A stretch of 64,000 nucleotides of DNA from an uncultured delta proteobacterium (GTDB taxonomy: Bacteria; Desulfobacterota; DSM-4660; Desulfatiglandales; HGW-15), in NCBI GenBank assembly GCA_963740905.1, contig CAVUFY010000004.1, positions 387,735-451,734 on the forward strand, in the 5' to 3' direction. The notes under the pieces were generated by a model that was not told the DNA's origin, did not search any database, and saw nothing but the letters and a program-made list of their open reading frames with translations. This document shows positions 8,480 through 29,595 of the stretch, in pieces; position 1 is the stretch's first letter; each line of letters starts with the position of its first letter. The position numbers and the translations under genes were made by a program.

Positions 8480-8487
8480 GTCTATCT

Positions 8488-9648: not shown

Positions 9649-9674
9649 AACCTCTCCCTCCTGATACCTCCGAC

Positions 9675-12147: not shown

Positions 12148-12621
12148 ATGAACAAACATGTTGCAATTGGCGCGATCGTGTTGATTGCCTCCATCTTCGT
12201 TTCTGGATGCGCAAATTACGGCACAATATCGTCGACACGGGCTCAGGATGTAACAATCGACACATTAACGAAGAATTGGACGAATTAAACGGTTTACTGG
12301 ACAGGCCTGGATATAAAAGAACCGACTGCGATTATGTTCGATCCCAAGGCGGATGGCAAAGCCCTCACAGGCGCTGGCGACCGGTGGTACAGGGTGGATA
12401 GCCAAGAGTCACTGTCAAAGCTGGTCGGTTGGCCAAAATTTAATCCTCTCTATTATCCATACGTATGGAGGGTCGCCGGGCCGGATGGACAGTTTTATGG
12501 GTATGTCTACGCAGGTTACACCCAGTTCGGGATGAGAGTGGTTGATGAGAAAACGATGCTGGTTTACGGCATACCGGCAACGCTTCGAGGGGGAGAACGA
12601 AAGCTTTTTAGCAAAGACTGA
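12148..12621 (+). pseudogene. Small lipoprotein interrupted by an in-frame TAA
   Basis: AAGGAGA lies 7 nt before ATG 12148. MNKHVAIGAIVLIASIFVSGC has a signal peptide and lipobox. TAA at 12286-12288 is followed in the same frame by coding-looking sequence TVYWTGLDIKEPTAIMFDPKADGK..., running into track ORF 12334..12621. Confidence 0.45.
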
Positions 12622-12949
12622 TGGGTACCAACAAAACGATCCATGAGGAGCGATATCCGGCAGAAGGTTAGTTCCTAATACCGCTGCCGTCATTATGTTC
12701 GGGCGTCACGAAGACTCCCGGTTGTTTGAAAAATCCATTATCTTCTGCGAGACGGGATTGAGGGGCAGATTCGCGGAAGATCCGTGATAGAAAAGTCAAC
12801 AGACAGCAAGTAGTTTAAAACAAGGGTCTTAACATGCTTTTGTAACTTGGCTCTTCCGAGCGTATTTAGCGGCTCAGCAAAATTTTGTTTGCCCTGCGAT
12901 CAAAGTTTGACAAAACTGTGTTTCTGGCCACACAGGGAGGAGACTAGCA

Positions 12950-13333
12950 ATGTTCAAGAGAATCGATCATGTCGAAATTGTTCCGAGAAACGCAGAAAAG
13001 ACCATTGACTTCTATGTCGATATCCTGGGCTTTAGGGTTAAAGGCCGAAATGAAGTCAGAATGCCGCCTATGAGAGAGGTCATTTATCTTCAACTGGGCG
13101 ATACGGTCATCGAGGTTATTTCCGCAGATAACCCCAAACTGAAATCAGAAAATCCCTGGGAAGTAGGATATAGAGGCATTGCCCTTGAGGTGGAGGATAT
13201 GGCAAAAGCGGTGGATTATCTGAAAAGCAGGGGGATAGCCATAGCCCGTGAACCTGTGGACTTGGGGGATTCGTATCGTGGAGAAATAAGAGATCCTGAT
13301 GGACTCATTATTGAACTCCGACAGTGGAAATAG
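12950..13333 (+). CDS. VOC (glyoxalase/bleomycin resistance/dioxygenase) family protein
   Basis: 127 aa with IDHVEIVPRNAEKTIDFYVDILGF...GIALEVEDM..., typical of a single VOC module. GGAGG lies upstream. Confidence 0.8.
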   Translation: MFKRIDHVEIVPRNAEKTIDFYVDILGFRVKGRNEVRMPPMREVIYLQLGDTVIEVISADNPKLKSENPWEVGYRGIALEVEDMAKAVDYLKSRGIAIAREPVDLGDSYRGEIRDPDGLIIELRQWK

Positions 13334-13699
13334 CCGATTAATGCCATTTTGCAAATCGGGTAAAGGCGAGGAGTCGTGAACTCCTACGCGGGTCATCAGG
13401 GACGGTCACCCGTCTCCAACTCCCTCGGATCATAGCAAACGGATTTTCCTCACAACACTCTTCCAAACAAGATCTATTCACAGCACAGAGGGTGATTACA
13501 GTTCCCTATAGGAAAACGACAATCTTGGTCGCGGAAAGAGAAGACTGTCCATAACTTCTTGACTTTTGGCCGATTTTCATCCAGCATTACTCGCAATTTC
13601 GGCTACCCAATCAGGTTCGTTTGACTTTTCTTCAAGGAAGAATGAGCTGTGCCTATTTTTTAACCCTTCGTCGTTCAGGGGTTCTAAGGAGCTAAAGAG

Positions 13700-14674
13700 A
13701 TGCAGGGGTCATTCCGAGAATACTGCAGCAGCCTCAAGGGGCTCCTGGATGATGCGGTGGAAGCAATCCTGCGAAGGATCTTCGATCATTTGCACACCAG
13801 TCCCTGTGATGCCTTGAATCAGACTTTTCGGGGCGGAAAAATGATCAGAGGCTCCCTTGTTTGCATGGTCAATGAAAGCCTCGGAGGATTGCGGGACTCC
13901 GCCGTTCCTCGATCTGTAGCCGTGGAACTCATTCACGGGGCTACCCTGATTCACGATGATTTTGTCGATCAGGATCGGACGAGACGGGGCAAGCCTGCCG
14001 CGTGGACCCTGGAGGGTGCCCGGAAAGCCGTCCTTTTCGGCGATGTGGTCTTTGCTTCGGCCATTGAGATGATGAGCAAAGTGGGGTGGGAAGATGGCCT
14101 GGTTGTTTCTCGTGCCATCGCCAGTATTTCGAAGGGAGCTTTCCAGGAACCCCTCGATCCTGCTGAACTGGCCGGGCAGGTCGAATCCAATGCTGTGAAC
14201 GATCGGCTCTATGATGCGATTATCCGTCTGAAGACTGGTGTCCTTTTCGGCGTTGCCTGTGAATTGGGCGCTATTGCTGCGGGTGCTGAGAGTCATGCAA
14301 GGGAGGCTTTTCATCGCTACGGCTTACTCCTTGGTGAAGCCTATCAGATTGCAGACGACCTGAAGGAGATCCGGCATCACCTGATCACCCGGTCCATCGG
14401 CTCCAGAGAACTCGCGGCGCTTGCCCCTGCCGTTCTTCGCTTCGGAAAGGACTCGCGGCATGTAATCCCGCTTATGTTGAGAAAGACGCATTCCTTGCTC
14501 GAAGGCACTGTGCTGGAGGAGTGGGAACACGTTCGGCAATGCATGGAACAGGAGATAGGGATACACCTGGAAAAGGCACAGCTTCAAGTCTCGGGGCTTT
14601 TTCCGGAGATCCTTCAAGAAACGATGATCCGCCAAGCTCCCTATGAGCTGATTGAGATGTTTAACGACTTGTGA
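13700..14674 (+). CDS. Polyprenyl diphosphate synthase family protein
   Basis: First Asp-rich motif LIHDDFVDQDRTRRG and second motif region YQIADDLKE. AAGGAG lies upstream of the ATG. Confidence 0.8.
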   Translation: MQGSFREYCSSLKGLLDDAVEAILRRIFDHLHTSPCDALNQTFRGGKMIRGSLVCMVNESLGGLRDSAVPRSVAVELIHGATLIHDDFVDQDRTRRGKPAAWTLEGARKAVLFGDVVFASAIEMMSKVGWEDGLVVSRAIASISKGAFQEPLDPAELAGQVESNAVNDRLYDAIIRLKTGVLFGVACELGAIAAGAESHAREAFHRYGLLLGEAYQIADDLKEIRHHLITRSIGSRELAALAPAVLRFGKDSRHVIPLMLRKTHSLLEGTVLEEWEHVRQCMEQEIGIHLEKAQLQVSGLFPEILQETMIRQAPYELIEMFNDL

Positions 14675-15107
14675 AGTCCTGTTTGAGAGCCGTGGGGCTT
14701 TTTCAAACCTCTGCGTCTCGTGCTGTCCTCCGAAACTTGTGATCACTTGCCAAGACAACAGAACCATGGGAATTCCTGATACATTGGGTATCCCAAGTAT
14801 TTCCTTTAAACCCTGTGATAGCTTGCCTTGGCGCATCGCTTTAAATGGCGCTCCCGGTTCTGATTAACGTCAGGGTAGTTGAAAATTTGCCGATTTGAGG
14901 TTACCCCAAAGAAATGGTCACGTTCCCGGGTAATCGGCTCGCGGCCCCACTGCCTTGGCATGCACATCCGTAACTCATGAGGATCATTCCAAAAAGTAGG
15001 CATTTAGCCCCGGAGAACCCGCGACCCGCCGGCAGGTTCGAATTGGGGGTTAAGCTCATCCTAGTGGGGCCCCGCAGCCCTCGCAAGTATACGGTTCTCT
15101 TGACCTT

Positions 15108-16346
15108 TCAGCTAGCAGGACCGATATCATCACGGGGGCGTGGCCCCGCCTGGCTCTCACGCAACAGGGGCCACAGCCCCCCCACAGCACCGGCAAGAAC
15201 AATCGGGCTTACGCCGGCGAGGATGCCGAGGGCCGCCTGGTGCCAGAGGTTTCCGAGCGCCCTTCCCGCCAGGGCGGCGGCAGGACCCAGGACGAATCCT
15301 GATCCGATCAGACCTTCGTGAGTCCCGCCGGATTTGACGGCCGCATTGCTGATCACCATCGCGTAGTAGAGACTAGCGTAATAGGCCACACCATGCGAGG
15401 CCCCGTACACGACCAAGCCCAAGGCGATGATGCCACCTCGACCCGTCGAGAGCGCCATCAGGAAACCGATCGGCAGGAGAATCGCCGTCAGGGCGAGGAT
15501 AGACCGTCGGCCATGCCAAATTTCGGTGCGCTGCATCAGCACGAATGTTATGGCTCGCCCGGCATCCAGACAACCGACAAGCGCTGTCTGAGCCACGAGC
15601 GTGTAACCCAGCCGGCTGAGAAGGACGGGCAGCAACGGCGACAGAACGAACAGCATAGCGTACCCGGCGACCATGGATGATCGACTGGATATCATCAGGG
15701 CGCCGAGCCAGCGAAGGCGCTCGGGATCGGGGCGTTCAGGATGATCCGCGGCCAGATGCTCGGGCACGGCCCGGAGACGCAGGACGAGGGTCATGGCCAA
15801 CGCCATGCACCCGGCCGCGCACAGGAATAGGCCGGCCCCCAGGAACTGTATGATCGGACCTGAAGACCAGACGGCCAGTGGCACCGGCACGGACCAGGCG
15901 ATGTTGAACTTTCCAATGGCCCGTGAGGCCCACACAGGAATCAGTCCCACGCTGATGTAGCTTTCCACGATGGGCCACATCATCCCGTTCAAACCCGAGA
16001 ACATGAAAGAGCCACCCACAAGCAGCCATCCGTGCGGCCTGTGCCAAACAGACGCAAGCATTACGATCTGACCGATCAGGACGCCCAGAAGAGCTCGCCT
16101 CTCGCCGAACCGCGTGGCCACGCGATGGCTGGGCAAAGCCCCGATCACATAGACGGCGCCCATCCCCAGCGCCAGGAGGAGGTTCGCGTTCTCCCCGAAG
16201 CCCAGCGCCTCTTGCGTATAGAAATACACCCCACGCTGCACCAGGACGGTGGCGAAGCTCTCGATAGATGCGAAGACTAGCAATCGGGCGAGGTAGCTCA
16301 TGCAGAAATTTGATGACAAGAAGTCCCTTTTTAACAGCCGGACCAT
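15108..16346 (-). CDS. MFS transporter
   Basis: About 410 aa and strongly hydrophobic, with 12 TM-like segments. The start is uncertain (TTG 16370, ATG 16346 or ATG 16301). Confidence 0.75.
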   Translation of the reverse strand: MVRLLKRDFLSSNFCMSYLARLLVFASIESFATVLVQRGVYFYTQEALGFGENANLLLALGMGAVYVIGALPSHRVATRFGERRALLGVLIGQIVMLASVWHRPHGWLLVGGSFMFSGLNGMMWPIVESYISVGLIPVWASRAIGKFNIAWSVPVPLAVWSSGPIIQFLGAGLFLCAAGCMALAMTLVLRLRAVPEHLAADHPERPDPERLRWLGALMISSRSSMVAGYAMLFVLSPLLPVLLSRLGYTLVAQTALVGCLDAGRAITFVLMQRTEIWHGRRSILALTAILLPIGFLMALSTGRGGIIALGLVVYGASHGVAYYASLYYAMVISNAAVKSGGTHEGLIGSGFVLGPAAALAGRALGNLWHQAALGILAGVSPIVLAGAVGGLWPLLRESQAGPRPRDDIGPAS

Positions 16347-16746
16347 AGGGGATTTGGCCTTGTGTGTCAAGGATAGAGTCAGTTTATGATTGAGCTGTGA
16401 TCGTGAGAGGCCGGGGAGGCTATTCTCCGCCTGCGCCCGGCCTCTTCAAGGAATGAAGACTTCGGGAAAGAATCCTGTCATTCGGAGGCACATCGAGCCA
16501 ATCCGTATCGTAACATTGGCTTTGAGGCGCTCAATTCATTTTCCTTTACCATCACAAACCTTGAAGATTATGGGCTTGGAAGGATCAGATAGCACAAGAA
16601 TCAACTAGCCTCTGATACAGGTGTTGAGAGGTCAGCAGCCACAATAATTTGTGCTGCATTTGTCATTGACACGCATTGTGGATCTTCATAAACTTGGGTC
16701 CCGAAAAAGTGAGTTCTTATCCCCTGAATTTGGAGGTGTTGTGATC

Positions 16747-17181
16747 ATGACAGGAGAAGAACGCAAAGCATCGGCGCGGCAAGCCATCGACGAGGTAGTG
16801 AATAAAGGGAACTTGGCACCCGTTGACGAGTTTTTTGCGGCGAATTACATCGGACATCTTTCCGACGGAGCGGAACTGAATGGTCCGGCGGAATTCAAAC
16901 AGTTCATCACCTTGTTACGCAACGCTTTTCCGGACATCCAGTACAAAGTGGAGGATATGGCCTGCGACGGCGATATCTTAGCGGTTCGCACGAGTTTCAC
17001 CGGGACCATGACCGGTCCGTTGAGAGGAATACCGCCTACCGGCAAGAAAGTGGTCATGCAGGAGGCACTGTTCTATCGGTTCGAGGGCGACAAGATAGCC
17101 GAAGAATGGTCGTTCATCAACCAAATGGCCCTGTTACAACAGATCGGTTTAGCTCCTCCGGCCCCAACCCCAGGCGCCTAA
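16747..17181 (+). CDS. SnoaL-like (ester cyclase) family protein
   Basis: MTGEERKASARQAIDEVVNKGNLAPVDEFFAANYIGH...GIPPTGKKV...FYRFEGDKIAEEW is the typical predicted-ester-cyclase pattern. GGAGG lies 10 nt before ATG 16747. Confidence 0.75.
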   Translation: MTGEERKASARQAIDEVVNKGNLAPVDEFFAANYIGHLSDGAELNGPAEFKQFITLLRNAFPDIQYKVEDMACDGDILAVRTSFTGTMTGPLRGIPPTGKKVVMQEALFYRFEGDKIAEEWSFINQMALLQQIGLAPPAPTPGA

Positions 17182-17639: not shown

Positions 17640-18070
17640 TTGGTCCTCCTGATGCTATTTTGTCATAAAAAAGTGATAGGTTATAATTCAATAGCGCCGT
17701 AACCTCACTTATGTACAAGACAGGTAGCTCGTCGGCTCCTGGCGGAGGTTATGCAGCATCGATCTTCAACTTGGCAGAACTGGCTGTTCGTTACTTCCAC
17801 TCCGAACTCTCGTCCCGACAGTTAATCCTGATAAAAGGTGGAACAACATAATGGAATCCCCGTCTCGATTCCCACTTTAAGCATCTAAATGAAAGGAGGA
17901 AAATGGGGTGATCCCAGTATATTTTCACCAATAATCATGTACAGACGTCATGCAGTCCTATCCGTTTAGCCAACTGATTTCTGTGAAACCATAGGGGTGG
18001 AGCATTCGGCACTTAACGCTTGATCCTGCCCACCGAATGCGAAATACTATATGGCTACGGGAGAGCGTGG

Positions 18071-19504
18071 ATGAACACGATCAAGAGCAGGATCATCGTT
18101 TTCTTTATTCTGTGCCTGATATTTTTCAGCGTCTTAACTTTTCTGTACTACGATAACATATTTGTCCTTGAGAACAAGGTGCTCATCACAGAAAAATTCC
18201 ACGAAATTCTTGATAACATCCTTGAGTTGAGGCGCTATGAAAAGAACTACGTCTACTACCGGGACGGCGAAGACCGCTATGAAATCGTCTCTTATCTCTA
18301 CAGGACGGAAGACGCCTTGAAGCGGTCTGCGAATGAGATCAGGCCTGCCATCGGCGAGAACGAACTGGGGAAATTCAGGAACAATCTCGCGGATTACAAG
18401 GCAGCGCTAGAGGAGACCATGGCCTTCATGGGAGAAAACGGTGGAGAACAGATCTATCCGGAGGTTCTGAGGTCCAGGGGAAAAGTCCTGGTCGACTCCG
18501 CCCAAGAACTCATAAACCTCAACCGCTCCCGGATCCGGCAGGCCATGCGAAAGACCTTCACCATCCCTGTCGCCTTCGTGGGGATCTTTGTGGTTCTGGC
18601 CGTCTTCATATTCGTTCTCGTGGTCAGGAGTATCCTCAAGCCCTTGGCATTGATCCAGAGGGCGACGGAGCAGGTCGCCAAGGAGACCTTCGCCCCCATT
18701 TCCATTCAGACAGGCAAGAAAGACGAAGTATCCCGACTGATCGTAGCTTTCAACAACATGGCCGAAGAGCTTGAATCGAGACAGATGCAGCTCTTGCAGT
18801 CTCGAAAAATGGCATCCATCGGCACCCTCACGTCAGGTATTGCGCACGAACTCAATAACCCCCTCAACAACATTTCTCTCACTGCTGAGACCCTGATAAT
18901 GAACCACCGGGAGATGCCGGACGAGGAAAAGGAAGAGATGCTGGAGGAGATCATGCATCAGTCGGACAGGGGGAGCCAGGTGGTGAAGAACCTCCTGGAA
19001 TTTTCCAGGAGCGATCGTCCTTTCCTGAGCGCCCTCAGCGTACAGGAGACCATCAAGGGAACCATCAGACTCATCAGGAACCAACTGATGGTGAACGGGA
19101 TCAAGCTGCATGAAGAAATCCAGGACGACATCCCGTTCCTCAGAGGCAAACGCCAGGACTTGGAGCAGGCCTTTCTGAATATCCTGGTGAATTCCATCCA
19201 GGCCATGCCGGAGGGAGGGCGCATTACTATCAGGGCGGGCTTGGGACCGCAGGGTTACATTAGAGTAGATATCGAGGATACGGGAATCGGCATCAAACCG
19301 GAGGATTTGACCCACGTTTTTGACCCCTTTTACACGACCAAGCCCGTTGGTCAAGGCACAGGCCTCGGACTTTCCCTGGCCTACGGTATTGTCAGGAACC
19401 ACGGCGGGTACATCGAAACAAAGAGTCAGGTCAACAAGGGGACCGCCTTTTCCATCTATCTGCCCATTCCTGAGGAGAGGGAGGAGAGAGCCCATGCCCT
19501 TTAG
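18071..19504 (+). CDS. Sensor histidine kinase (TM - sensor - TM - HAMP - HisKA - HATPase)
   Basis: Two TM segments, H-box SGIAHELNNPLNNI, and G-boxes DTGIGI and GTGLGLS. Start at MNTIKSR. Confidence 0.9.
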   Translation: MNTIKSRIIVFFILCLIFFSVLTFLYYDNIFVLENKVLITEKFHEILDNILELRRYEKNYVYYRDGEDRYEIVSYLYRTEDALKRSANEIRPAIGENELGKFRNNLADYKAALEETMAFMGENGGEQIYPEVLRSRGKVLVDSAQELINLNRSRIRQAMRKTFTIPVAFVGIFVVLAVFIFVLVVRSILKPLALIQRATEQVAKETFAPISIQTGKKDEVSRLIVAFNNMAEELESRQMQLLQSRKMASIGTLTSGIAHELNNPLNNISLTAETLIMNHREMPDEEKEEMLEEIMHQSDRGSQVVKNLLEFSRSDRPFLSALSVQETIKGTIRLIRNQLMVNGIKLHEEIQDDIPFLRGKRQDLEQAFLNILVNSIQAMPEGGRITIRAGLGPQGYIRVDIEDTGIGIKPEDLTHVFDPFYTTKPVGQGTGLGLSLAYGIVRNHGGYIETKSQVNKGTAFSIYLPIPEEREERAHAL

Positions 19505-20855
19505 GATCGCCGTTGTTGACGACGAAGCCCCTGTCCGGAGGCACCTTCAGAAGGCTCTCGAAGGAGAAGGATACGAGGTGGAGACCTTCGACTCGGCGCG
19601 ACCCTTTTGGGACCGCATGGGTGAGAAGCCCTTCAACCTGGCCTTTCTGGATGTTAAGCTGCCTGATACCGACGGCATCGAGTTGCTCGCCCGTCTTAAG
19701 GCTCGCTATGAGCACACGGAGGCGATCATCATCACGGGCTACGGCTCGATTGATTCGGCTGTCGAGGCCATCAAGAAGGGCGCCTACCATTACGTGACCA
19801 AACCTTTCAGGCTCACCGAGGTATGTCTTCTCTCAAAGGGAGCCAGGGAAAAGATTGATGTGAGAGAGGAGAACCGTCGCCTGAAAGAGTCCCTGGAGGG
19901 ACCCGAAGTCCTCAAAGGGTTCATCGGTACGACCCCTGCCATGCAGGAGATCTTTGCCATGATTAAGAAGGTGGCCGCGGTCAATTGTAATGTGCTCCTG
20001 CAAGGTGAAAGCGGAACCGGAAAGGAACTGGTAGCAAGATCGATCCATGCCCTCAGTCCCCGGAAGGACCGGCCGTTTGTGTCCTTCAACTGCGGAGGAT
20101 TTACCGAAGAGTTGATCTGCAATGAGTTATTCGGCCACGAGAAGGGCGCCTTCACAGGGGCGACCTTGAGCAAGATCGGCCTCATTGAGTCGGCAGCGGG
20201 GGGCACGGTTTTCCTCGACGAGATTGGGGAAATGCCCCAGTCCATGCAGGTGAGGCTGCTCCACGTGATTCAGGAAAAACGGATCATCCGGGTTGGCGGC
20301 ACCAGACCCATCGATCTGGATATACGCATCATTGCGGCCAGTAACAGGGACATCAAGAAAGCGGCTTTTGAAGGCTATTTCCGAGAGGACCTTTTCTACC
20401 GGTTAAATGTGGTAACCCTTTATCTTCCCCCGCTGGCGGAAAGAAAAGAGGATATCCCCCTTCTGGTTTCCCGCTTCCTGGAAAAGTACAGCAGGCCTTT
20501 CGGCAAAAAGGTGAGGCGCATATCAGCTCAGGCACTTGAAATCCTGATGCACTACAATTTTCCCGGCAACGTGAGAGAACTGGAAAATATCACCCAACGG
20601 GCGGTAGCTCTTGCGGAGGGCGAAGTAATCCGGCCAAGAGACCTCCCCGCCGACCTCCAGGGCCTCGAATTCGACAGCTTCGAAGGAGAGGGGCTGCCTA
20701 CCCTCGAAGAAATGGAAAGGCAGCACATCGCCAGGGTTCTTGAGAAGACAGGGCACAACAAAGGCCTGAGCAGCAAGATCCTCAATCTCCCCCGGACCAC
20801 CCTCTGGAGGAAAATGAAAAAGTACGGCCTCCTCCGAAAGGATGAAACCCCTTAG
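19494..20855 (+). CDS. Sigma-54-dependent response regulator (NtrC family)
   Basis: Receiver domain (VVDDE...DVKLPDTDG...KPF), AAA+ domain with GESGTGKE and the GAFTGA motif, and a C-terminal HTH (LNLPRTTLWRKMKKYGL). It overlaps the kinase stop by 11 nt. Confidence 0.92.
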   Translation: MPFRIAVVDDEAPVRRHLQKALEGEGYEVETFDSARPFWDRMGEKPFNLAFLDVKLPDTDGIELLARLKARYEHTEAIIITGYGSIDSAVEAIKKGAYHYVTKPFRLTEVCLLSKGAREKIDVREENRRLKESLEGPEVLKGFIGTTPAMQEIFAMIKKVAAVNCNVLLQGESGTGKELVARSIHALSPRKDRPFVSFNCGGFTEELICNELFGHEKGAFTGATLSKIGLIESAAGGTVFLDEIGEMPQSMQVRLLHVIQEKRIIRVGGTRPIDLDIRIIAASNRDIKKAAFEGYFREDLFYRLNVVTLYLPPLAERKEDIPLLVSRFLEKYSRPFGKKVRRISAQALEILMHYNFPGNVRELENITQRAVALAEGEVIRPRDLPADLQGLEFDSFEGEGLPTLEEMERQHIARVLEKTGHNKGLSSKILNLPRTTLWRKMKKYGLLRKDETP

Positions 20856-20925
20856 GACTGCAATTTTTCATATTGAAACACCATTTTCCGCCTTGACCTA
20901 TCCGTTCCTGTTTCTTGAACAAATC

Positions 20926-20952
20926 TGAAACAGCTTCGTCCGCAGCGTTTCA
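20926..20952 (+). promoter_or_regulatory. Candidate upstream activator site for the NtrC-type regulator
   Basis: Inverted repeat TGAAAC-N15-GTTTCA about 75-100 nt upstream of the -24/-12 element. Extra TGAAAC half-sites lie at 20874-20879 and nearby. Confidence 0.35.
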
Positions 20953-21023: not shown

Positions 21024-21039
21024 TGGCATGCCTCTTGCC
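21024..21039 (+). promoter_or_regulatory. Sigma-54 (-24/-12) promoter
   Basis: TGGCATgcctcTTGCc matches TGGCAC-N5-TTGCW with correct GG/GC spacing. It ends 25 nt upstream of the first gene of the block and lies directly downstream of an enhancer-binding-protein gene. Confidence 0.65.
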
Positions 21040-21064: not shown

Positions 21065-21505
21065 ATGGAGAAGATTCTTGTGGGGGTGACACCGGAGAAT
21101 GATCGCCTATGGGCCGGCATGCACGCCCTCAGCCTGGCGAAAAGGATCGGGGCACAGGTCACCTTTCTCTTGATCTTGGACCCCGCTAGAAACAGCGCAA
21201 AACCCGGAGAAAGGAAAGAGGCGGAGCAGTCCGTCAGGAAAAGCCTGGAATCCATCATTGGTCAGGCTCGTTCCGAGGGGTTGCACGTGGAGTACTACGT
21301 GGCGCACGGCAGCTACGAGAGCGAGCTGATAAGATTCGTCAAGGAAAACAAGATGAGCATGCTCATCATCGATTGGCCGACTTGCGAAAAAGGGGCCGCT
21401 GGAAACGCTAAGGACATTTTGGAAAAGATCCGACATCAGATCGACTGCCGCGTGGAGGTTGTCCAGGAGAGAAGCTCGGATCTTGCGTGCAAAAGGAGAA
21501 GATGA
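21065..21505 (+). CDS. Universal stress protein (Usp)-like protein
   Basis: 146 aa with KILVGV...LLILD...ELIRFVKENKMSMLIID, a Usp-like alpha/beta fold pattern. No clear ATP-binding G-x2-G-x9-G(S/T) motif seen. Confidence 0.65.
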   Translation: MEKILVGVTPENDRLWAGMHALSLAKRIGAQVTFLLILDPARNSAKPGERKEAEQSVRKSLESIIGQARSEGLHVEYYVAHGSYESELIRFVKENKMSMLIIDWPTCEKGAAGNAKDILEKIRHQIDCRVEVVQERSSDLACKRRR

Positions 21506-22425
21506 TGATAGACTTGTACTTACCTATTGCCGGCGAGAGCGTCAATCTCCTTCTGGTGTTTGGCATGGGAGGCCTGGTGGGGGTCCTCTCGGGTATATTC
21601 GGTGTTGGAGGCGGTTTCCTGATGACCCCTTTGCTGATTATGCTGGGGATTCCTCCCACGGTGGCCGCGGCTTCCGATTCCAATCAGATCGTGGGCGCTT
21701 CAACCTCCGCCACCCTCGCCCATTACAAGATGGGCAATGTGGATTTCAAGATGGGCATCTTTCTCCTCATAGGAGGGGTGGCGGGCGGGACTCTGGGCGT
21801 CCAGATTATCAAGATTCTCCGTCAGATGGGAAATGCGGACTTCCTTATCAAGATCACCTATGTATTAATGCTTGGGCTCATAGGAACCTATATGTTTATC
21901 GAAAGCATCCAGGCCATGAGACACAAAGCCGTCAGGGAATCCGGCCCAAGGAAGGAGTCCAGGTACAGCCTTCTGGTGAACCGGCTTCCCTGGCAGATTG
22001 ATTTTGAGAAATCAGGGGTGAGGCGATCCATCCTTATGCCCCTCGGCCTCGGGATCTTTGTGGGCGTCATGGCTGCAATCATGGGGGTGGGCGGAGGATT
22101 TATCATGGTTCCCGTCATGGTGTATCTGCTGAGGATGCCCATGCATGTCGTGGTGGGGACCAGCCTTTTTCAGATTCTCTTCACCTGCATCAATGTCACT
22201 GTCATGCAAGCTTTAACCAACCACACCGTCGACTTCATCCTGGCGGTCATTCTTCTGGCAGGCTCCACCTCAGGGGCCCAGGTGGGCGCCCGATTGAGCA
22301 GGAGGCTGAAAGGCGAGCAACTGAAGATCCTCTTGGCATCTCTCGTTCTTCTCGTCATGCTCAAGATGCTGTTCGACCTTCTATTGCCCCCCGGAGTCCT
22401 GTTCTCAAGAATGGGAGGTCATTAA
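21502..22425 (+). CDS. TauE/SafE (TSUP) family anion permease
   Basis: GMGGLVGVLSGIFGVGGGFLMTPLLI and the second-half repeat IMGVGGGFIMVPVMVYLL are hallmark TSUP repeats. ATGA overlaps the upstream stop. Confidence 0.85.
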   Translation: MMIDLYLPIAGESVNLLLVFGMGGLVGVLSGIFGVGGGFLMTPLLIMLGIPPTVAAASDSNQIVGASTSATLAHYKMGNVDFKMGIFLLIGGVAGGTLGVQIIKILRQMGNADFLIKITYVLMLGLIGTYMFIESIQAMRHKAVRESGPRKESRYSLLVNRLPWQIDFEKSGVRRSILMPLGLGIFVGVMAAIMGVGGGFIMVPVMVYLLRMPMHVVVGTSLFQILFTCINVTVMQALTNHTVDFILAVILLAGSTSGAQVGARLSRRLKGEQLKILLASLVLLVMLKMLFDLLLPPGVLFSRMGGH

Positions 22426-22429
22426 ATTG

Positions 22430-23218
22430 ATGAAACGCCTTTCAGCAGTTCTCGTCCTATTGGTGACTGGTTTGTGGGCCTGCGCTCATGCCGCCCAGGC
22501 GTCAACTTCGGTGGAAGCTTACATGGAGCCCAGTGTTGTTTCCATCGGCGCCTTTTTCAACGGCGCCCGGATCACCGTTAAGGGGAAGGCTCCGGCGTCC
22601 AACGAGGTAATGATCACCGTGACCGGGAAGACGGAAGACCTGGAGCTCAACAAGAAGGGGCGCGCCTTCGGCCTTCTATGGATGAACGTCGGCACCATGA
22701 CCTTCCATCAGGTCCCCAGCGTGTATTTGTTTTACACATCAATGCCGCTCAATCCCTCTGCCCAGGCCTATCCCGAGTGGTGGCGTCAGATGCCGGGAGG
22801 ATTCGAATCCCTCGAAAAGAAAACTCAGATCACACCTGCCTCTGGAAAGGATGCCGGGGCTCTGTTCAAGGAATTCCTGAAGCTGAAGAAACAGGAAGGG
22901 CTTTACGCCCTTCACGGGGGTGAGATTCGATACGGCCGGGAAAAGGACAAAGAAAAATCCTATGAGGCTACGCTCTGTATTCCCGCCAAAATACCCCCAG
23001 GACGATACGAGGTGACGGTGTCCGCTCTCAACGGCGCATCCGTCGTGGGCTCCGCATCCGAGTATCTGACGGTTAAAGAGGTGGGCATGCCTGCTTATCT
23101 CTCGTCTTTTTCTCTGCACCATGGCCTCCTGTACGGTGTTCTCGCGGTCTTGATCGCTGTGGGAACAGGACTGCTCATGGACACGCTTTTTGGAAGCAAG
23201 AGGCCGCATTCCCATTAA
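22430..23218 (+). CDS. Secreted/membrane-anchored protein of unknown function (signal peptide + C-terminal TM; TIGR02186/Alph_Pro_TM-like from memory)
   Basis: MKRLSAVLVLLVTGLWACAHA signal peptide and C-terminal TM helix (LLYGVLAVLIAVGTGLLM). I recall this family being paired with TauE-like permeases. Confidence 0.5.
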   Translation: MKRLSAVLVLLVTGLWACAHAAQASTSVEAYMEPSVVSIGAFFNGARITVKGKAPASNEVMITVTGKTEDLELNKKGRAFGLLWMNVGTMTFHQVPSVYLFYTSMPLNPSAQAYPEWWRQMPGGFESLEKKTQITPASGKDAGALFKEFLKLKKQEGLYALHGGEIRYGREKDKEKSYEATLCIPAKIPPGRYEVTVSALNGASVVGSASEYLTVKEVGMPAYLSSFSLHHGLLYGVLAVLIAVGTGLLMDTLFGSKRPHSH

Positions 23219-23246
23219 GAAAGGGATCGCCTCGGAGGGACAGCCT

Positions 23247-25829
23247 GTGAGCGCATTTTCGGAACGGATCAGAGGGTTATTCGGGAAAAGGAGGGACCGC
23301 CCGGTCATGTTCCCCGCCCTTTTCACTCTGTTCCAGGAGGTTCTGGGCCTGAATAACGAGATCCTGGACACCATCGCCGATCTGGGCACCAAGCTGGGAG
23401 GAAATTATGTCTTTGACCAGCAGTACATTCGCTCCACATGTGCGCTCCTGGCCGACAAAGTCTACAGGATCATCAACAACCTGAATGCCATGACCGGCAA
23501 CAGACACATGGCTCTTTACGACACCTTTCAGCGTATCAACCATGAAATCACTGAAGAGCTGGAAGGAAGGCCCGTCATCGCCCAGACAGATTACACGATA
23601 CCCTACGAAGCGATAGGCACAGATCTTGTGGACGTGGTGGGCGCCAAGAACGCTACCCTGGCCGAAGTGGAGAACCTGCTCGGGCTCAAAGGTCCGGAAG
23701 GTTTTGCTATTACCGCTCGGGCCTTTCAGGCATTCTTGGAGCACAAGGATCTTGCAAAGAAGATCGCCTCTGTGACTTCACGGTGGGAAAAGGGGCACAT
23801 CATAAGCCGGGAGGCAGAGGAGATGATACGGGCCTTGATTAAAGCGGCCGAGGTGCCGGTCCCCTTGCAGAAGGCCCTTCGCAGGGCCACGGAAGCGCTT
23901 CGTGATAAAACGCAGGGCAACGAGGAGAAGCTCGCCTTTCGGAGCAGCGCCCTGAATGAGGACGGTGAACACTCTTTCGCCGGTCAATACATGAGCCTTC
24001 TCAATGAGGCGGCGGAAAAAATCATCGACTGCTACAAATCCGTGCTGGCAAGCACCTATTCCGCTTCCGCCATGGAGTACAGGCGCCAAAAGGGGTTTCT
24101 TGAAAGCGAAGTGGCCATGGCTGTCGGATGCCAGCGCATGGTTGCGGCAAAGGCGAGCGGAACTCTCTACACCCTTGATCCCCGTTCCCCTGAAGATGAG
24201 GTGATGGTCATTACGGCCACCTGGGGGTTGGGCGCCCCCCTGGTGGGAGGGACCGCGAAAGCAGACCTTTATGCGGTCACACGTGAGCCCTCCCACGAAA
24301 TCGTGCGCCTTGACATCGTGCGTAAAACGGAAAGACTCATGCCTAAGCAGGAGGGCGGAGTAGAGTTTCTCCCCGTTCCCGAGGAGCTTCAGAGCGTGAG
24401 TTGCCTTTCCGGCGATCAAGCAAGGCGTCTGGCTGATGCAGGGCTCCTCATCGAAAGGCATTTCAAAAAGCCCCAGGATGTCGAGTGGGCTCTTGACGAC
24501 CGCGACAGGCTCTTCATCCTGCAGACACGACCACTCAACATCCGGGCGAAAGTGGCCCAGATGGTCTGTGACATCTCGTCAGTGCTCCGGAACTATACGG
24601 TCCTCTTTGAGGGCAGAGGTTTCGTTGCCCAGGAAGGGATCGGGGCAGGAAAGGTTTTCATCGCCGACACGGATGAAGACCTGGATGTCTTTCCGGAAGG
24701 AGCCGTCCTGGTCACAAGGTATGCCTCTCCGCGGGTCGGAAGGGTCATCAAGAAGGCGAACGCAGTTCTCACTGACGTGGGATCTCCTACCGGACACATG
24801 GCTACCATCGCGCGGGAGTTCCGCGTCCCTGCCCTCGTCAATACGGAAGTGGCAACGGAACTACTCCGACCGGGCCAGGTCATCACAGTAGATGCCAGGC
24901 AGAACGTGGTGTACTCAGGCACGGTCAAAGAGCTTTGTCTCTATGAGTTCGCAGGGGAAGCCTTCGAAGAGATGTGGGAATATCGTCTCTTACGACGAGT
25001 TCTGAAAAGAATCGCGCCGCTGAACCTGATCGACCCCGCCGACAAAGATTTCTTGCCTTCCGCCTGCAAGACCTTCCACGACATTACGCGCTTCGTCCAC
25101 GAAAAAGCGGTGGAGGAACTGATCGACCTGAGATACTCCCATGCCTCTGAAGAGGCCATGGCGGGCCGGAAGAAGCTCAAGTTCGACGTCCCCCTTTCCT
25201 TGGTTCTGATCGATATCGGCGACGGCCTTAATCAATCGAGCGGCTTGACCGTAGAACCCAAAGACGTGGCCTCGGTGCCCATGCAGGCCTTTCTGCGCGG
25301 TCTGTCCGAGCCGGGAGCCTGGAGTACCCGGCCCCTGTCAGTGGATTTCACGAGCTTCATGTCAAGCCTGACGCGCACGCTGTCACTTGCAGGAACAGGG
25401 CCCAAGTACGTGGGGCAGAATCTTGCAATCATATCCAAAGAGTATGCGAACATTACCCTTCGGCTGGGTTACCACTTCAACATGATTGACGCCTATATCA
25501 GCGAGCAGTCCAACAGCAACTATGCTTATTTCCGCTTTCTCGGAGGAGTAACGGAGATGGTCCGCAGGTCCCGCAGGGCGCGGCTTCTCGCCGATATTCT
25601 TTTGCAGAAAGACTTTCGCGTGGATGTGCGGGGGGACCTGGTTGTGGCTAGGATCAAGAAATTGCCGAAGGAGAGAATGGAAGATAAGATGCGTCTTCTC
25701 GGTTCCTTGGTCGCCTTTACCCGCCAGCTCGACGTAAGGATGATCAGCGACGAGGAGATCCCCAGGGTCAGGGAAGAGTTCAACGAACTGAAAGAGACCG
25801 AGCAGGGTCACCACAACCTAACGGTATGA
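23247..25829 (+). CDS. PEP-utilising-enzyme family protein: ATP-grasp (PPDK_N) + swivelling His domain + non-canonical C-terminal domain
   Basis: PPDK_N-type region (VGAKNATLAEV...FRSSALNEDGEHSFAGQY...DVEWALD..LFILQTRP) and mobile domain TDVGSPTGHMATIAREFRVPALV. The C-terminal ~300 aa lack PpsA TIM-barrel motifs. Start set at GTG 23247 after GGAGGG. Confidence 0.85.
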   Translation: MSAFSERIRGLFGKRRDRPVMFPALFTLFQEVLGLNNEILDTIADLGTKLGGNYVFDQQYIRSTCALLADKVYRIINNLNAMTGNRHMALYDTFQRINHEITEELEGRPVIAQTDYTIPYEAIGTDLVDVVGAKNATLAEVENLLGLKGPEGFAITARAFQAFLEHKDLAKKIASVTSRWEKGHIISREAEEMIRALIKAAEVPVPLQKALRRATEALRDKTQGNEEKLAFRSSALNEDGEHSFAGQYMSLLNEAAEKIIDCYKSVLASTYSASAMEYRRQKGFLESEVAMAVGCQRMVAAKASGTLYTLDPRSPEDEVMVITATWGLGAPLVGGTAKADLYAVTREPSHEIVRLDIVRKTERLMPKQEGGVEFLPVPEELQSVSCLSGDQARRLADAGLLIERHFKKPQDVEWALDDRDRLFILQTRPLNIRAKVAQMVCDISSVLRNYTVLFEGRGFVAQEGIGAGKVFIADTDEDLDVFPEGAVLVTRYASPRVGRVIKKANAVLTDVGSPTGHMATIAREFRVPALVNTEVATELLRPGQVITVDARQNVVYSGTVKELCLYEFAGEAFEEMWEYRLLRRVLKRIAPLNLIDPADKDFLPSACKTFHDITRFVHEKAVEELIDLRYSHASEEAMAGRKKLKFDVPLSLVLIDIGDGLNQSSGLTVEPKDVASVPMQAFLRGLSEPGAWSTRPLSVDFTSFMSSLTRTLSLAGTGPKYVGQNLAIISKEYANITLRLGYHFNMIDAYISEQSNSNYAYFRFLGGVTEMVRRSRRARLLADILLQKDFRVDVRGDLVVARIKKLPKERMEDKMRLLGSLVAFTRQLDVRMISDEEIPRVREEFNELKETEQGHHNLTV

Positions 25830-25836
25830 GGACATC

Positions 25837-26235
25837 ATGAATGAGAACAAGAAGACGAGCGTTCTTATCCTGGACGATGAAACGATCGTGATCAAGCGAC
25901 TGAAGCCGGCCCTGGAGAAGACGGGCTATGAAGTGGAGGCCTTTTCCCAAAGTGCGGAAGCCTCAAGGCGTATCATGGAAAAGGACTTCGATATCGTCAT
26001 TACCGATCTCAAGATGGAAGGGCTTGACGGTATGCAATTCCTGACTCAGGTTAAGGAACGCTCCCCGTCCACGGAGGTCATTGTCATCACAGGCTTTGCC
26101 ACCATGGAGACGGCCAAGGAGTCCTTCCAGAAGGGAGTGTTCGATTTTCTGGCAAAGCCTTTCAAAATCGCAGAGATCCAAGAGGTCTTGAAAAGGGCGG
26201 AATTAAAAATAGGAGAGAGAAAATCGGTCCGGTAG
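25837..26235 (+). CDS. Single-domain response regulator (CheY-like receiver)
   Basis: VLILDDE...DIVITDLKMEGLDG...VIVITG...KPF, 132 aa, with no output domain. Confidence 0.9.
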   Translation: MNENKKTSVLILDDETIVIKRLKPALEKTGYEVEAFSQSAEASRRIMEKDFDIVITDLKMEGLDGMQFLTQVKERSPSTEVIVITGFATMETAKESFQKGVFDFLAKPFKIAEIQEVLKRAELKIGERKSVR

Positions 26236-26298
26236 AGGCGCCCGTTCGATCGGGGACCGCCCTCCACCGGCTCGGCAAAGAAGGAGTGGACAAGTACC

Positions 26299-27123
26299 AT
26301 GATTAGAGCTCTCGTTTCTCTGGACGTGGATCTGGCATCAAGCATCGCCCTAAGATATGCTTGCCAGATGGCTAAGATTGTCGAGATGGAGCTCCAACCT
26401 ATCCACGTTGAGGAGCCCGGGCGTGAGGGGCGCGTCCTCGGAACGGGCTGGGTCGAGCGAACATGGGAGAAAACCCTGCTCAAAACCGGACTGGAAGAGA
26501 TTAACCGGCTGATCATGACAGAAAGAGGCTCGTGTCCGGCCATCTTCCCTCCCAAAATCTCTGTCGGAAATCCTCAGAACGAGATCCTCCGTGAACTCAA
26601 AGAAGAACCCTATGACCTGCTTGTAAAAGGCGAGTTGTACGCATTCACTTCAGCCGGGTTTCACGAAAAGGTCCACTCCCGTCTCTTCCGCTATGCCCCC
26701 TGTCCCATCATGGTAGTCAACAACCTCGTTCATCTTCAGAAGGTGAGCCTTCTTCTGGAAGAAGGGACCGAAATCCAGCCCCTGATCGGAACTTTCCTAA
26801 AGCTGTTCGGTGCGACAGACGTTGATGCCGACCTGCTCTATTGCAGGTTTCGGCCTTCCGCCAGGCAAGGTACCCGCCAGGATGAGAAGCCTGATACGAT
26901 CATTCGCGCCGCAGAGGAAATGTTTTCCCGGCAAGGTCGTAGGCTGGGAAAAACCGAGGTCAGAGAGGAGGCGCCCGAGAAGCTGGGGGATCTCATGCGG
27001 GATTACGGTCTTGTCATGACTTCCATCCACCATGATCGAGGCCGGAAGAATCCGATGGCGGAGTTGTTGAGCCATACGCCGTCTCCCATCCTGCTGCTTA
27101 TCCGGCAGGGTGCAAACAGATAA
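26299..27123 (+). CDS. Tandem universal-stress-protein-like protein
   Basis: 274 aa with two Usp-like halves (...YDLLVKGE...CPIMVV... and ...SPILLL). Confidence 0.6.
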   Translation: MIRALVSLDVDLASSIALRYACQMAKIVEMELQPIHVEEPGREGRVLGTGWVERTWEKTLLKTGLEEINRLIMTERGSCPAIFPPKISVGNPQNEILRELKEEPYDLLVKGELYAFTSAGFHEKVHSRLFRYAPCPIMVVNNLVHLQKVSLLLEEGTEIQPLIGTFLKLFGATDVDADLLYCRFRPSARQGTRQDEKPDTIIRAAEEMFSRQGRRLGKTEVREEAPEKLGDLMRDYGLVMTSIHHDRGRKNPMAELLSHTPSPILLLIRQGANR

Positions 27124-27134
27124 AGGAGGATGGA

Positions 27135-28031
27135 ATGAGAATCCTTGTCGCAGTGGACCGAAACCCATACAGCGCCCTTGCCATCGCTGAAGCGGCGGCG
27201 CTCGCCAAGAATACGTGGGCCAACGTCACCCTGCTCGGTGTGGACGCCAAGAGGCTGCAGAAGGGAGAGAAATCCGCCGCGAGTCCCATGGGAAAGGACA
27301 TGAAACACCACCCGCTCATGGAGACGCTTCGCCGTTACCGGGAGGACTTTCTCGGGTATTTCGAGGCAGGCGATTCGCCTTACACGGGACAGGAGTTCGA
27401 TTATGAAGTCATTGAGATGAAGAAGGGCATATGGGAGGAACTCCGCGTGTGCCGGGCCGGGAAGAAGGACCTGAGGGTGCGCGTGAGAACCGGAAACCCC
27501 TTGAAGGAAATCCTGTCGGAATCCATCGAGAAGGAGAGCGACCTCATCGTCATCGCCTGTGACAAAGGAAATAACTGCGCGTGGGAGAAGGCCGGAAACC
27601 TTCCCCAGAAAGTCGCTAATGAAGCTTCCTGTTCTGTCATGGTGGTAAAGGGCAAGGAGAAGATCAACCAGGTGGTTTGCTGCTTGGATCATGCTCAAGT
27701 GAGCCAGGCCTCTCTCGAATTGATCAGCCAGATGGTGACCCTGCACCAGGCGACTTTGGACATTGTCGGGCTCACGGACAAGGAGAGCCTTAAAGCCGAA
27801 GTTGAGAGAAAGATGGATTGGATCCTCAAGTATTACGCAGCTCGGCAGATTAAGCCCTGGATTAAACTGGTAGACGGCTACTCTCTTGAAACTTTCATCA
27901 GCCAGGAAGCTCGTCGGGGTCTTATCGCCTTGTGGATGGGGGAGAAATCCGTCCTGAGCAGGATCTTTCCGCGAAGCAAAGTCGAGAAGTTGGTCAAATC
28001 CGCGGGCTCTTCCATCCTGATCCTGAGATGA
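27135..28031 (+). CDS. Tandem universal-stress-protein-like protein
   Basis: 298 aa with MRILVAVDRNPYSALAIAEAA...SDLIVIACDK...CSVMVVK and a second half ending SSILILR. Confidence 0.7.
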   Translation: MRILVAVDRNPYSALAIAEAAALAKNTWANVTLLGVDAKRLQKGEKSAASPMGKDMKHHPLMETLRRYREDFLGYFEAGDSPYTGQEFDYEVIEMKKGIWEELRVCRAGKKDLRVRVRTGNPLKEILSESIEKESDLIVIACDKGNNCAWEKAGNLPQKVANEASCSVMVVKGKEKINQVVCCLDHAQVSQASLELISQMVTLHQATLDIVGLTDKESLKAEVERKMDWILKYYAARQIKPWIKLVDGYSLETFISQEARRGLIALWMGEKSVLSRIFPRSKVEKLVKSAGSSILILR

Positions 28032-29370
28032 ACTCTGAGAAATCCTCCGGATCGGGGATGTCGAGTCCCAGGTGACGGCCCATCAATCCGAATTGCCCGT
28101 AGGCCATTTCCGCCCCGTACTGGACTGCGCAGCCCTTTTCGAGAGCTGCCGCCAACCATGGCGTGACTTTGGGGTTGGTGACCACATCGGCCACCAATGT
28201 TGGCGGGGACAGCGACTCCGTGGGAAACGGCACATGTGGATCGTCATTCATCCCCACCGGTGTGGCGTTCACCACGAGGTCGAAGCCCTCCAGCTCGGTG
28301 AGCTCAAAGGAAATTCTGACAGCCGGATTTCCCTTTTTGAGCAAACGCTCCAAGAATCCATGGCGCTCCGTCCGTATTTCTTTGATCACGATTTCATCGG
28401 CTCCGGACCGGGCTATCGCCTCGGCAATGGCCGCTCCGGCACAGCCCCCGCCGATCACCGCGACGCGTTTGCCATGGACAGACAGCCCGTGGTTCCTGAT
28501 CGCCACCATAAAACCAAGGCCGTCCACCATGTCCCCGATAAGACGTCCGTTTTGAGCCCTGACGACGTTGACCGCAAGAAGGTCTTTGACCCTCCCGGAT
28601 ATTTCGTCCATAAATTCCACCGCCGATTGCTTGTGGGGTACCGTCACGATACACCCCCCAAAGTTGGAAATAGTCCGCATCAACATGAAATGATCCTTTA
28701 CCCGGTCCACGGGCACGTCCATGGCGATCATGACGGCATCTATTTCGTGTTCGCCAAAATAGCGATTGTAAAGAAGGGGGGATTTTACCTGGATGACCGG
28801 CGTTCCGATCATGGTGTAAAACGTTGTGGTTCCCGTCGGGACAACCCCACTCGTGCTCTCGGCTCTCCTTTCCGTTTGCCTCTCAAGCCACGCTTCGTTT
28901 GCCAGAACAACGGAGGTTTCTACCTGGCGTCCGGGAACGGACCAGTATTTCCTGAGCAGCCGGTTCTTTTCCTGATCGGGGATCACGATGAATCCGCGCT
29001 TTTCATAGAAGCGAACAGCCCAGACAGCATCCGCCCATGTGCCGATGAGGATCGGCCTTGCAGTCTCTTTGCACAGAAAGGACAAAAGCTCGCTTCCGAT
29101 GCCCCTGCCCTGTTCAGAGGGCAAAACGTAGGCATGCCTGATCAGGGCAACATCTTTGACTTGCTGAAAACCCATGACACCTATCAACCGGTCACCGCGT
29201 CGGTATCCCCAGAACTCGATTCCCTCCCTGATCTCTTGTCCGAGTTCTTCCTCCGACATATAAGGCTCTTTCCAGCAGTCTTCGGAGATCACTCCTTGAT
29301 ACTTCTCGGCAGCCTTATTGATGATAGAATAAATGGCTGCAAAGTCTCCATCCTCACATCGTCGGATCAT
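27994..29370 (-). CDS. GNAT acetyltransferase fused to a shikimate/quinate dehydrogenase (AroE-like) domain
   Basis: The N-terminal half has a GNAT core (VLPSEQGRGIGSELL...FYEKRGF). The C-terminal half has AroE motifs (GTPVIQVKSPLLYN, VTVPHKQ, GDMVDGLGF, VIGGGCAGAAIA, NATPVGM). The start is uncertain (29370 or 29400). The 3' end overlaps the convergent Usp gene by 38 nt. Confidence 0.8.
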   Translation of the reverse strand: MIRRCEDGDFAAIYSIINKAAEKYQGVISEDCWKEPYMSEEELGQEIREGIEFWGYRRGDRLIGVMGFQQVKDVALIRHAYVLPSEQGRGIGSELLSFLCKETARPILIGTWADAVWAVRFYEKRGFIVIPDQEKNRLLRKYWSVPGRQVETSVVLANEAWLERQTERRAESTSGVVPTGTTTFYTMIGTPVIQVKSPLLYNRYFGEHEIDAVMIAMDVPVDRVKDHFMLMRTISNFGGCIVTVPHKQSAVEFMDEISGRVKDLLAVNVVRAQNGRLIGDMVDGLGFMVAIRNHGLSVHGKRVAVIGGGCAGAAIAEAIARSGADEIVIKEIRTERHGFLERLLKKGNPAVRISFELTELEGFDLVVNATPVGMNDDPHVPFPTESLSPPTLVADVVTNPKVTPWLAAALEKGCAVQYGAEMAYGQFGLMGRHLGLDIPDPEDFSEFISGSGWKSPRI

Positions 29371-29595
29371 CCTGTCTCTCCTCGCCTCCACTCCGGCCAT
29401 CGAATATCCAGGCAACCTATGAAACATGATACGATGGCGGACGCTAACCCGCAATCGCAAAAAGCAGATCTTTCTCAGGTGCTGCCCCCCAAGCTTGCCA
29501 ACTCCGCCCAAATCTGTTAAGCAAAGAATCTCCGGCTTTCAAATTTTACATTATCTTCGGGAATTCCGCTGGCTCGGAAGGAGATCATCACAAAA

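Follow-up and report, generated by a model that had tools for sequence, protein, structure and literature searches.

A PEP-synthase-like enzyme with an undescribed C-terminal domain, encoded directly upstream of a CheY-like receiver and beside a TauE/TIGR02186 permease pair

We analyzed a window of 64,000 nucleotides from an uncultured delta proteobacterium of the Desulfobacterota (GenBank assembly GCA_963740905.1, contig CAVUFY010000004.1, positions 387,735 to 451,734 of the forward strand; positions below are counted from the first letter of the window). The window contains a plus-strand gene, at 23247..25829, for an 860-aa PpsA-like swivel-His enzyme, that is, a protein resembling phosphoenolpyruvate (PEP) synthase. 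Its product is read from a GTG codon at 23247, which follows GGAGGG and 8 further nucleotides, within the plus-strand open reading frame 23190-25829. An earlier note, made from the letters of this DNA, had reported an ATP-grasp domain and a swivelling phospho-His domain in the protein, and Pfam matched both. The ATP-grasp nucleotide domain, PPDK_N (PF01326; 2.5e-79), covers residues 129-435 (23631..24551, plus strand), and the phospho-His domain, PEP-utilizers (PF00391; 9e-18), covers residues 482-552 (24690..24902, plus strand) and contains the sequence TDVGSPTGHMATIAREFRVPALV at residues 509-531. In the family alignment the ATP-grasp residues K134, R232, E238, D239, and E413 do not vary, and Q426 and R428 hardly do. 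H517, whose codon is at 24795-24797, is also invariant and lies opposite the catalytic His of the canonical PpsA from the same genome. By these residues, the enzyme has an intact catalytic apparatus for ATP-dependent His phosphorylation. HisKA, HATPase_c, and histidine phosphotransfer (HPt) domains were all absent from its Pfam matches.

The two ends of the protein are different from PpsA, and Pfam gave no match for residues 1-128 or 553-860. An N-terminal helical domain of about residues 1-115 (23247..23591, plus strand), which PpsA lacks, is specific to the family and consists of three long helices, at 22-49, 58-83, and 89-105 in the predicted model; it is kept throughout the family alignment. 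NCBIfam PpsA models and the PpsA chains in the PDB aligned with the enzyme only up to residue ~562-564, the PDB chains starting from ~115, and the NCBIfam scores stayed far under the cut-offs (329.7 bits vs 598 for NF005057; 317 vs 740 for TIGR01418). The organism has a separate canonical PpsA of 825 aa elsewhere in its genome, with PPDK_N, PEP-utilizers, and PEP-utilizers_C, so the gene in the window is not the housekeeping PpsA. The two proteins are 29% identical across residues 115-561, where the alignment ends.

The remaining part of the enzyme, residues ~565-855 (~290 aa; 24939..25811, plus strand), is an undescribed alpha/beta domain. The earlier note had recognized no PpsA/PPDK motif in this part, quoting strings that are all found in the 860-aa translation, and the end of the PpsA models and the silence of Pfam after residue 552 bear this out. 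It had also named a divergent PEP-utilizers_C barrel as the finding that would overturn its reading, and no such barrel appeared by Pfam, hhalign, PDB profile search, or predicted fold. Among 46 family C-domains, PEP-utilizers_C (PF02896) gave no Pfam match at E<=1, only scattered noise, and hhalign of the profile of these 46 domains against the barrel of the canonical PpsA from the same genome returned a probability of 0.09%. The C-domain profile found 0 matches at E<=10 in a search of all PDB sequences. AlphaFold models had a predicted local distance difference test (pLDDT) score of 76 for the full-length protein and 67 for the domain alone, with core strands at 80-96, and in both models the C-domain consists of helices on antiparallel sheets, not a (beta-alpha)8 barrel. 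When the domain-only model was compared with the PDB by Foldseek, nothing was found at E<=0.001; the top match had an E value of 0.026, TM-scores were at most 0.22, and no barrel was among the matches. The weak top matches (DHHA1/C-Ala-like, RecJ, and arginine kinase; TM-score <=0.22) were not relied on for a fold assignment. The full-length model recovered the N-terminal parts of PpsA, rifampin phosphotransferase (RPH), and PPDK only. The profile, structure-prediction, and Foldseek analyses that the earlier note had proposed for this domain thus matched no known family or fold, and the C-domain has no counterpart in Pfam, NCBIfam, PDB sequences, or PDB folds.

The C-domain is nevertheless strongly conserved. 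Across 146 diverse sequences, C607, H611, D612, H618, D656, H743, G766, G767, R774, R777, D797, and D829 are each conserved in at least 95%, and E619 in 92%. C607, H611, and H618 lie at i, i+4, and i+11 of the first long helix, and a FRFxGG strand-loop is followed by an Arg-rich helix. We can only infer from this arrangement that the helix with C607/H611/H618 and the Gly-Gly loop with its Arg-rich helix might form a metal, phosphoryl, or anion site. The C-domain would form a new domain family.

The enzyme gene is followed by a gene for a stand-alone CheY-like receiver of 132 aa (25837..26235, plus strand), with Response_reg (2e-29) as its sole Pfam match and the codon of Asp57 at 26005-26007. 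The gap is 7 nt, as the earlier note had it: the stop codon TGA of the enzyme occupies 25827-25829 and the receiver ATG begins at 25837, and a GAGG sequence overlaps the enzyme stop codon ahead of this ATG. We then compared gene context over the 80 closest genome loci. Because these loci are the closest relatives, the neighborhood figures given here describe the subfamily of the window best. In 72 of 79 loci the gene right after the enzyme encodes a receiver, and the inferred gap between the two has a median of 4 nt. The earlier note would have given up its proposal had this adjacency not been conserved; it is conserved, in these 72 loci from several phyla and, in addition, as gene fusions in three representative clusters. 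All 73 receiver orthologues compared keep D13, D14, D57, T85, and K107, and this invariance of the acceptor residues indicates that phosphorylation of the receiver matters.

The fusions were found in three independent clusters at 50% identity (P0145, P0144, and P0174), and in each the receiver follows the enzyme at its C-terminal end. In P0145, this fused receiver has 44% identity to the stand-alone receiver in the window and retains D57, T85, and K107. No N-terminal receiver fusion was found among 150 representatives. In hybrid kinases, too, phospho-accepting receivers typically stand at the C-terminus. In Maridesulfovibrio paralogues, the receiver may also sit immediately upstream of the enzyme, within runs of histidine kinase and response regulator genes. 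A putative functional link between the enzyme and the receiver is well supported by this conservation of gene order and by the fusions, and the receiver, which the earlier note had named as one speculative candidate partner, stays a candidate acceptor.

The enzyme is also tied to a pair of membrane proteins encoded just upstream on the plus strand: a TauE/SafE (TSUP) permease at 21487..22425 (Pfam 2.5e-51) and a TIGR02186/Alph_Pro_TM protein at 22427..23218 (Pfam 2.9e-42, and NCBIfam), the latter having a signal peptide, a periplasmic domain of ~200 aa, and one C-terminal transmembrane helix. Of 65 loci, 64 have TauE and TIGR02186 genes upstream of the enzyme gene. These two genes are co-inherited with those for the enzyme and the receiver, which are sometimes fused to each other. 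PADLOC gave no defence-system match for the enzyme or the TIGR02186 protein.

Further genes on the plus strand complete the cluster. It begins with a sensor histidine kinase (18020..19504; HAMP-HisKA-HATPase_c by Pfam), whose start codon is uncertain, followed by an NtrC-type sigma-54 enhancer-binding response regulator (19500..20855; REC-AAA+-HTH_8 by Pfam), which is listed as an open reading frame from 19320 and probably starts near 19500. A histidine kinase is encoded within 8 kb in 61/80 of the related loci and an enhancer-binding protein in 45/80. Next comes a single-domain universal stress protein (Usp; 21065..21505, Pfam), the position of which is kept in L001, L002, and L004. Downstream of the receiver, in conserved positions, lie a tandem-Usp-like protein of 274 aa with a weak Usp Pfam match (26299..27123) and a tandem-Usp protein of 298 aa (27135..28031; Pfam 8e-15), which is the last gene of the unit. 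Usp genes are present in 47/80 of the related loci. The whole order of nine genes (histidine kinase, sigma-54 enhancer-binding protein, Usp, TauE, TIGR02186, enzyme, receiver, and the two tandem-Usp genes) recurs in L001, L002, and L004, where the flanks are unrelated. At 27994-28031, 38 nt are shared by the last Usp gene and the 3' end of a convergent GNAT-AroE-like fusion gene on the minus strand (27994-29511).

A sigma-54 -24/-12 promoter-like element, TGGCATGCCTCTTGC, is located at 21024..21038 on the plus strand, with 26 nt between it and the start of the operon's first gene, and is the sole match with one mismatch in that region. Among 31 related loci with an enhancer-binding protein, 21 carry the pattern TGGCAY-N5-TTGC (at least 9/10 positions) between the gene for that protein and the gene that opens the operon. 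TGAAAC/GTTTC half-sites are repeated at 20873-20952, 70-150 nt upstream of the -24/-12 element, and include an inverted repeat, TGAAAC-N15-GTTTCA, at 20926-20952; these half-sites are candidate sites for the adjacent enhancer-binding protein. Consensus scans within the operon gave no internal promoter or terminator above chance. These predicted elements are consistent with one sigma-54-dependent transcript running from 21065 to 28031. TSUP transporters are frequent sigma-54 targets according to a study of the sigma-54 regulome of Desulfovibrio vulgaris. A Myxococcales locus shows a minimal module, histidine kinase-TauE-TIGR02186-enzyme-response regulator-response regulator, without a DNA-binding protein, and since this module has no DNA-binding output, its output must be post-transcriptional.

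The family is large. An exhaustive search with the C-domain alone returned at least 1154 clusters at 50% identity (E<=1e-3), and essentially all full-length matches were proteins of 800-900 aa with the C-domain at about 560-850. At 90% clustering, a word-index search yielded more than 2230 proteins; each carries PF01326 and PF00391 alone, and most are named 'pyruvate, water dikinase'. The family is encoded in at least 577 species genomes, mainly of Desulfobacterota, and occurs in Gemmatimonadota, Myxococcota, Acidobacteriota, Planctomycetota, Zixibacteria, and Ignavibacteria as well. Among 61 Desulfovibrionaceae genomes, 42 carry it, and a single genome may have as many as 9 copies. Such numbers of paralogues, and paralogues placed amid histidine kinase and response regulator genes, are a pattern typical of signalling families. 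No stand-alone C-domain protein was found: the short homologues were contig-end fragments, and two that were checked on long contigs were frameshift-split genes in error-prone assemblies. No independent architecture of the C-domain was therefore found. Among the family representatives, P0269 (1061 aa) has a C-terminal extension of ~220 aa with a weak lectin-like match (Glyco_hydro_59_C). In P0160 (319 aa), an S9-peptidase-like N-terminus (GGSYGG) precedes the C-domain; P0160 is probably a chimeric or frameshifted gene call.

Paralogues were also seen side by side and within the genome of the window itself. In L031, L035, L037, L040, L043, and L070 (Syntrophobacterales and Desulfovibrio-type), one or two more family paralogues follow the enzyme-receiver pair in tandem, with the histidine kinase and the enhancer-binding protein divergent upstream. 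The genome of the window encodes a second copy of 865 aa on another contig (8842-11439 in locus L096, G000:C19:103000-122000). The cluster around this copy, on the minus strand at 4741-16755, comprises a dCache-histidine kinase, three receivers, TauE, a 228-aa protein without a Pfam match, the enzyme, a dCache-histidine kinase, a receiver, and another dCache-histidine kinase. On contig C23 of the same genome (L091:988-3960, minus strand) lies a gene for a 990-aa protein with an N-terminal Response_reg domain and PPDK_N at 436-820, in which no swivel-His or barrel match was found; here a receiver and an ATP-grasp domain are combined in another way.

A distant paralogue of the enzyme has published phenotypes. 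Transposon insertions in a poorly annotated cluster of D. vulgaris Hildenborough and D. alaskensis G20 gave resistance to 100-150 mM nitrate, and not to nitrite (Korte et al. 2014, PMC4001038). This cluster, DVU0251-DVU0245 in the former and Dde_0597-0605 in the latter, contains genes for TauE, a hypothetical protein, a PtxB-like protein, a histidine kinase, a receiver, a 'pyruvate phosphate dikinase, PEP-utilizing mobile domain' protein (DVU0246/Dde_0604), and a phosphatase (PMC4001038). Nitrate resistance was the common phenotype of TauE, receiver, and dikinase-like mutants, the G20 histidine kinase mutant was nitrate-resistant as well, and G20 cluster mutants were mildly sick on thiosulfate (PMC4001038). 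In a D. vulgaris-type genome, at ~278 kb on the minus strand, we found a gene order identical to that of the published cluster. BLASTP aligned the 859-aa dikinase-like protein encoded there with residues 26-837 of the window enzyme (30% identity over 866 columns, E 5e-99), and the alignment takes in the N-terminal helical domain, kept from residue 26, as well as the C-domain motifs CxxxHD-x5-HE, GYHF, and FRxxGG; the two proteins also have the invariant residues in common. By its sequence and its place in the cluster, this homologue is evidently DVU0246. Because a gene of the nitrate cluster is an end-to-end homologue of the window enzyme, the family has a genetic phenotype. Permease, receiver, and enzyme have this phenotype in common, which places all three in one pathway.

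The nitrate cluster and the cluster in the window have in common the end-to-end enzyme architecture, TauE, a small hypothetical protein, a histidine kinase, and a single-domain receiver. Unlike in the window, the receiver of the nitrate cluster is upstream of the enzyme, a phosphonate-binding-type periplasmic protein and a dual-specificity phosphatase are encoded, and there is no Usp and no sigma-54 activator. Its enzyme is a paralogue and not an orthologue, and the published work gives phenotypes alone, with no biochemistry or domain analysis. Since the window gene belongs to the other, sigma-54/Usp-type subgroup of paralogues, the nitrate phenotype is not simply transferable to it. The histidine kinase of the nitrate cluster, DVU0248, has been listed as a pseudogene (PMC4001038). 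In genome G047, however, its frame (L114:11314-13428, minus strand) is intact, with 704 aa and sCache, HAMP, PAS, HisKA, and HATPase_c domains. We therefore dropped the argument that the enzyme must charge the receiver because the kinase is a pseudogene, given this intact frame and the phenotype of the G20 kinase mutant. At the end of the D. vulgaris cluster (L114:7060-8169, minus strand), a phosphatase of the dual-specificity/protein tyrosine phosphatase type is fused to a CxxCxxCC domain. A dikinase beside a dual-specificity phosphatase recalls the glucan-water-dikinase/SEX4 pair of plants.

The combination of domains sets the window enzyme apart from the known enzymes to which it is related. 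Like PpsA (PDB 2OLS, 8A8E, and 9DAE), it has an ATP-grasp domain followed by a swivel-His domain with conserved catalytic residues; unlike PpsA, it lacks the PEP/pyruvate TIM barrel, carries the extra helical domain and the new C-domain, and is found in a signalling and transport setting. RPH and the PigC/RedH ligases are precedents for the re-targeting of this ATP-grasp and swivel-His chassis to new acceptors. In RPH (PDB 5HV1 and 5FBS) and PigC/RedH, the acceptor domain lies between the ATP-grasp domain and a C-terminal His domain, whereas in the window enzyme the His domain is central (482-552 of 860), and neither a PDB profile search nor Foldseek showed any similarity, in sequence or fold, between the C-domain and RPH, PigC, or RedH. 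The receiver at the C-terminus of some family members resembles the arrangement of hybrid histidine kinases (HisKA-HATPase_c-REC), a likeness that is functional and hypothetical. Unlike histidine kinases, the enzyme has no HisKA/DHp or GHKL ATPase domain, and its predicted chemistry is ATP to AMP + Pi. In Enzyme I of the phosphotransferase system, the swivel His of the PEP-utilizers domain phosphorylates a protein, on His. The logic proposed below would be common to the hybrid kinases and Enzyme I: a His charged by ATP or PEP hands its phosphate to a partner protein.

Taken together, these results suggest that the enzyme is probably a phospho-signalling device rather than a metabolic enzyme. 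In the mechanism that we propose, the enzyme would autophosphorylate His517 from ATP by dikinase chemistry (ATP to AMP + Pi), and the swivel domain would carry the phosphoryl group to the C-domain, from which it would pass, directly or via an invariant His, to Asp57 of the translationally coupled receiver. Once phosphorylated, the receiver would control the TauE/TIGR02186 anion-permease module. The cluster would then have, next to its canonical histidine kinase, an ATP-grasp/swivel-His enzyme that plays the part of a (hybrid) histidine kinase. We put the probability of this relay, from His517~P through the C-domain to Asp57 of a receiver that controls TauE/TIGR02186, with the enzyme as a dikinase-type analogue of a hybrid histidine kinase, at roughly 0.4. 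It is favored because the fused receivers are C-terminal, the paralogues are expanded, and the neighborhoods are rich in two-component genes. Several points weigh against it. Some paralogues have no adjacent receiver (L107, L109, and L112). The histidine kinase of the cluster, present in 61/80 loci, could be the only donor to the receiver, which would then regulate the enzyme. The models of the C-domain are of moderate confidence only (pLDDT 67-76). Finally, many of the invariant polar residues of the C-domain resemble a catalytic or ligand pocket more than a docking surface, which makes a small-molecule acceptor plausible.

Such an acceptor is at the center of another explanation, a receiver-regulated dikinase. 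In this case, the histidine kinase would charge the receiver, the receiver would switch the enzyme, and His517~P would phosphorylate a small molecule in the C-domain, for example, the substrate of TauE/TIGR02186, resulting in ATP-driven trapping or group translocation. We regard this main rival as a serious possibility, only a little less probable than the relay. To our knowledge, every characterized member of the chassis (PpsA, PPDK, RPH, and PigC/RedH) phosphorylates or activates a small molecule or glucan, and the best NCBIfam matches of the window enzyme are among these members. C607, H611, D612, H618, H743, GG766-767, and R774/R777 are typical of a catalytic or anion-binding pocket, and the link to the permease pair in 64/65 loci, the histidine kinase in most clusters, and the mild sickness of G20 cluster mutants on thiosulfate (PMC4001038) all point in the same direction. 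On the other hand, no candidate substrate is known; as many as nine paralogues in one genome, and paralogues amid histidine kinase and response regulator genes without TauE, would be unusual for a metabolic enzyme; and the C-terminus is where a fused receiver usually serves as phospho-acceptor, not as regulator. If the acceptor were instead a xenobiotic or antibiotic, as in RPH, or the enzyme a secondary-metabolite ligase of the PigC kind, the partial NCBIfam matches to RPH, PigC, and RedH across the ATP-grasp domain and the Foldseek matches to RPH structures would be explained. The scores of these models are far under their cut-offs (212 vs 999; 225 vs 1300), the domain order differs, with the His domain central here and C-terminal there, and the conserved partners are signalling and transport genes, not a biosynthetic or resistance setting, so that we consider this very improbable.

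It is slightly easier to imagine, but still improbable, that the protein is a pseudo-enzyme, an inactive scaffold or sensor that binds nucleotide and reports the energy state to the receiver and Usp. Usp proteins bind adenine nucleotides and are co-encoded in 47/80 loci, and no activity has ever been shown for the family; the invariance of the ATP-grasp catalytic residues and the phospho-His, however, argues for retained chemistry. That the enzyme is a true PEP synthase with a highly divergent PEP/pyruvate barrel is suggested by the database name 'pyruvate, water dikinase' and by the 29% identity to PpsA over residues 115-561. Sequence and predicted fold both refute this reading, which retains almost no probability: Pfam, hhalign, PDB profile search, and Foldseek gave no PEP-utilizers_C signal, the secondary structure is not (beta-alpha)8, the NCBIfam score is 330 vs 598, and a canonical PpsA is encoded elsewhere in the genome.

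Beyond Korte et al. 2014, our literature search found no paper on the family, its C-domain, TIGR02186/Alph_Pro_TM, or the coupling to a receiver. The chassis was already known, and one paralogue has published phenotypes; the C-domain and the receiver coupling, as predicted from sequence, appear to be new. In sulfate reducers and several other phyla, the name 'pyruvate, water dikinase' or 'PEP synthase' is given to thousands of genes whose products, lacking the barrel, cannot make PEP, and these names mislead metabolic reconstructions. The tight coupling of the family to receivers, sensor kinases, and TSUP permeases, the presence of up to nine copies, and the receiver fusions point to an unstudied mechanism of signalling or transport control. 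The nitrate resistance of the Desulfovibrio mutants is the sole genetic handle and is relevant to the nitrate treatment of oil-field souring. It is conceivable, though we consider it rather doubtful, that the family is a receiver kinase class of its own, in which a self-charging dikinase (AMP + Pi) phosphorylates a CheY-like receiver via a new phosphotransfer domain. If true, many anaerobes would gain a second entry route into two-component signalling, chemically distinct from histidine kinases, that controls TSUP-type anion permeases.

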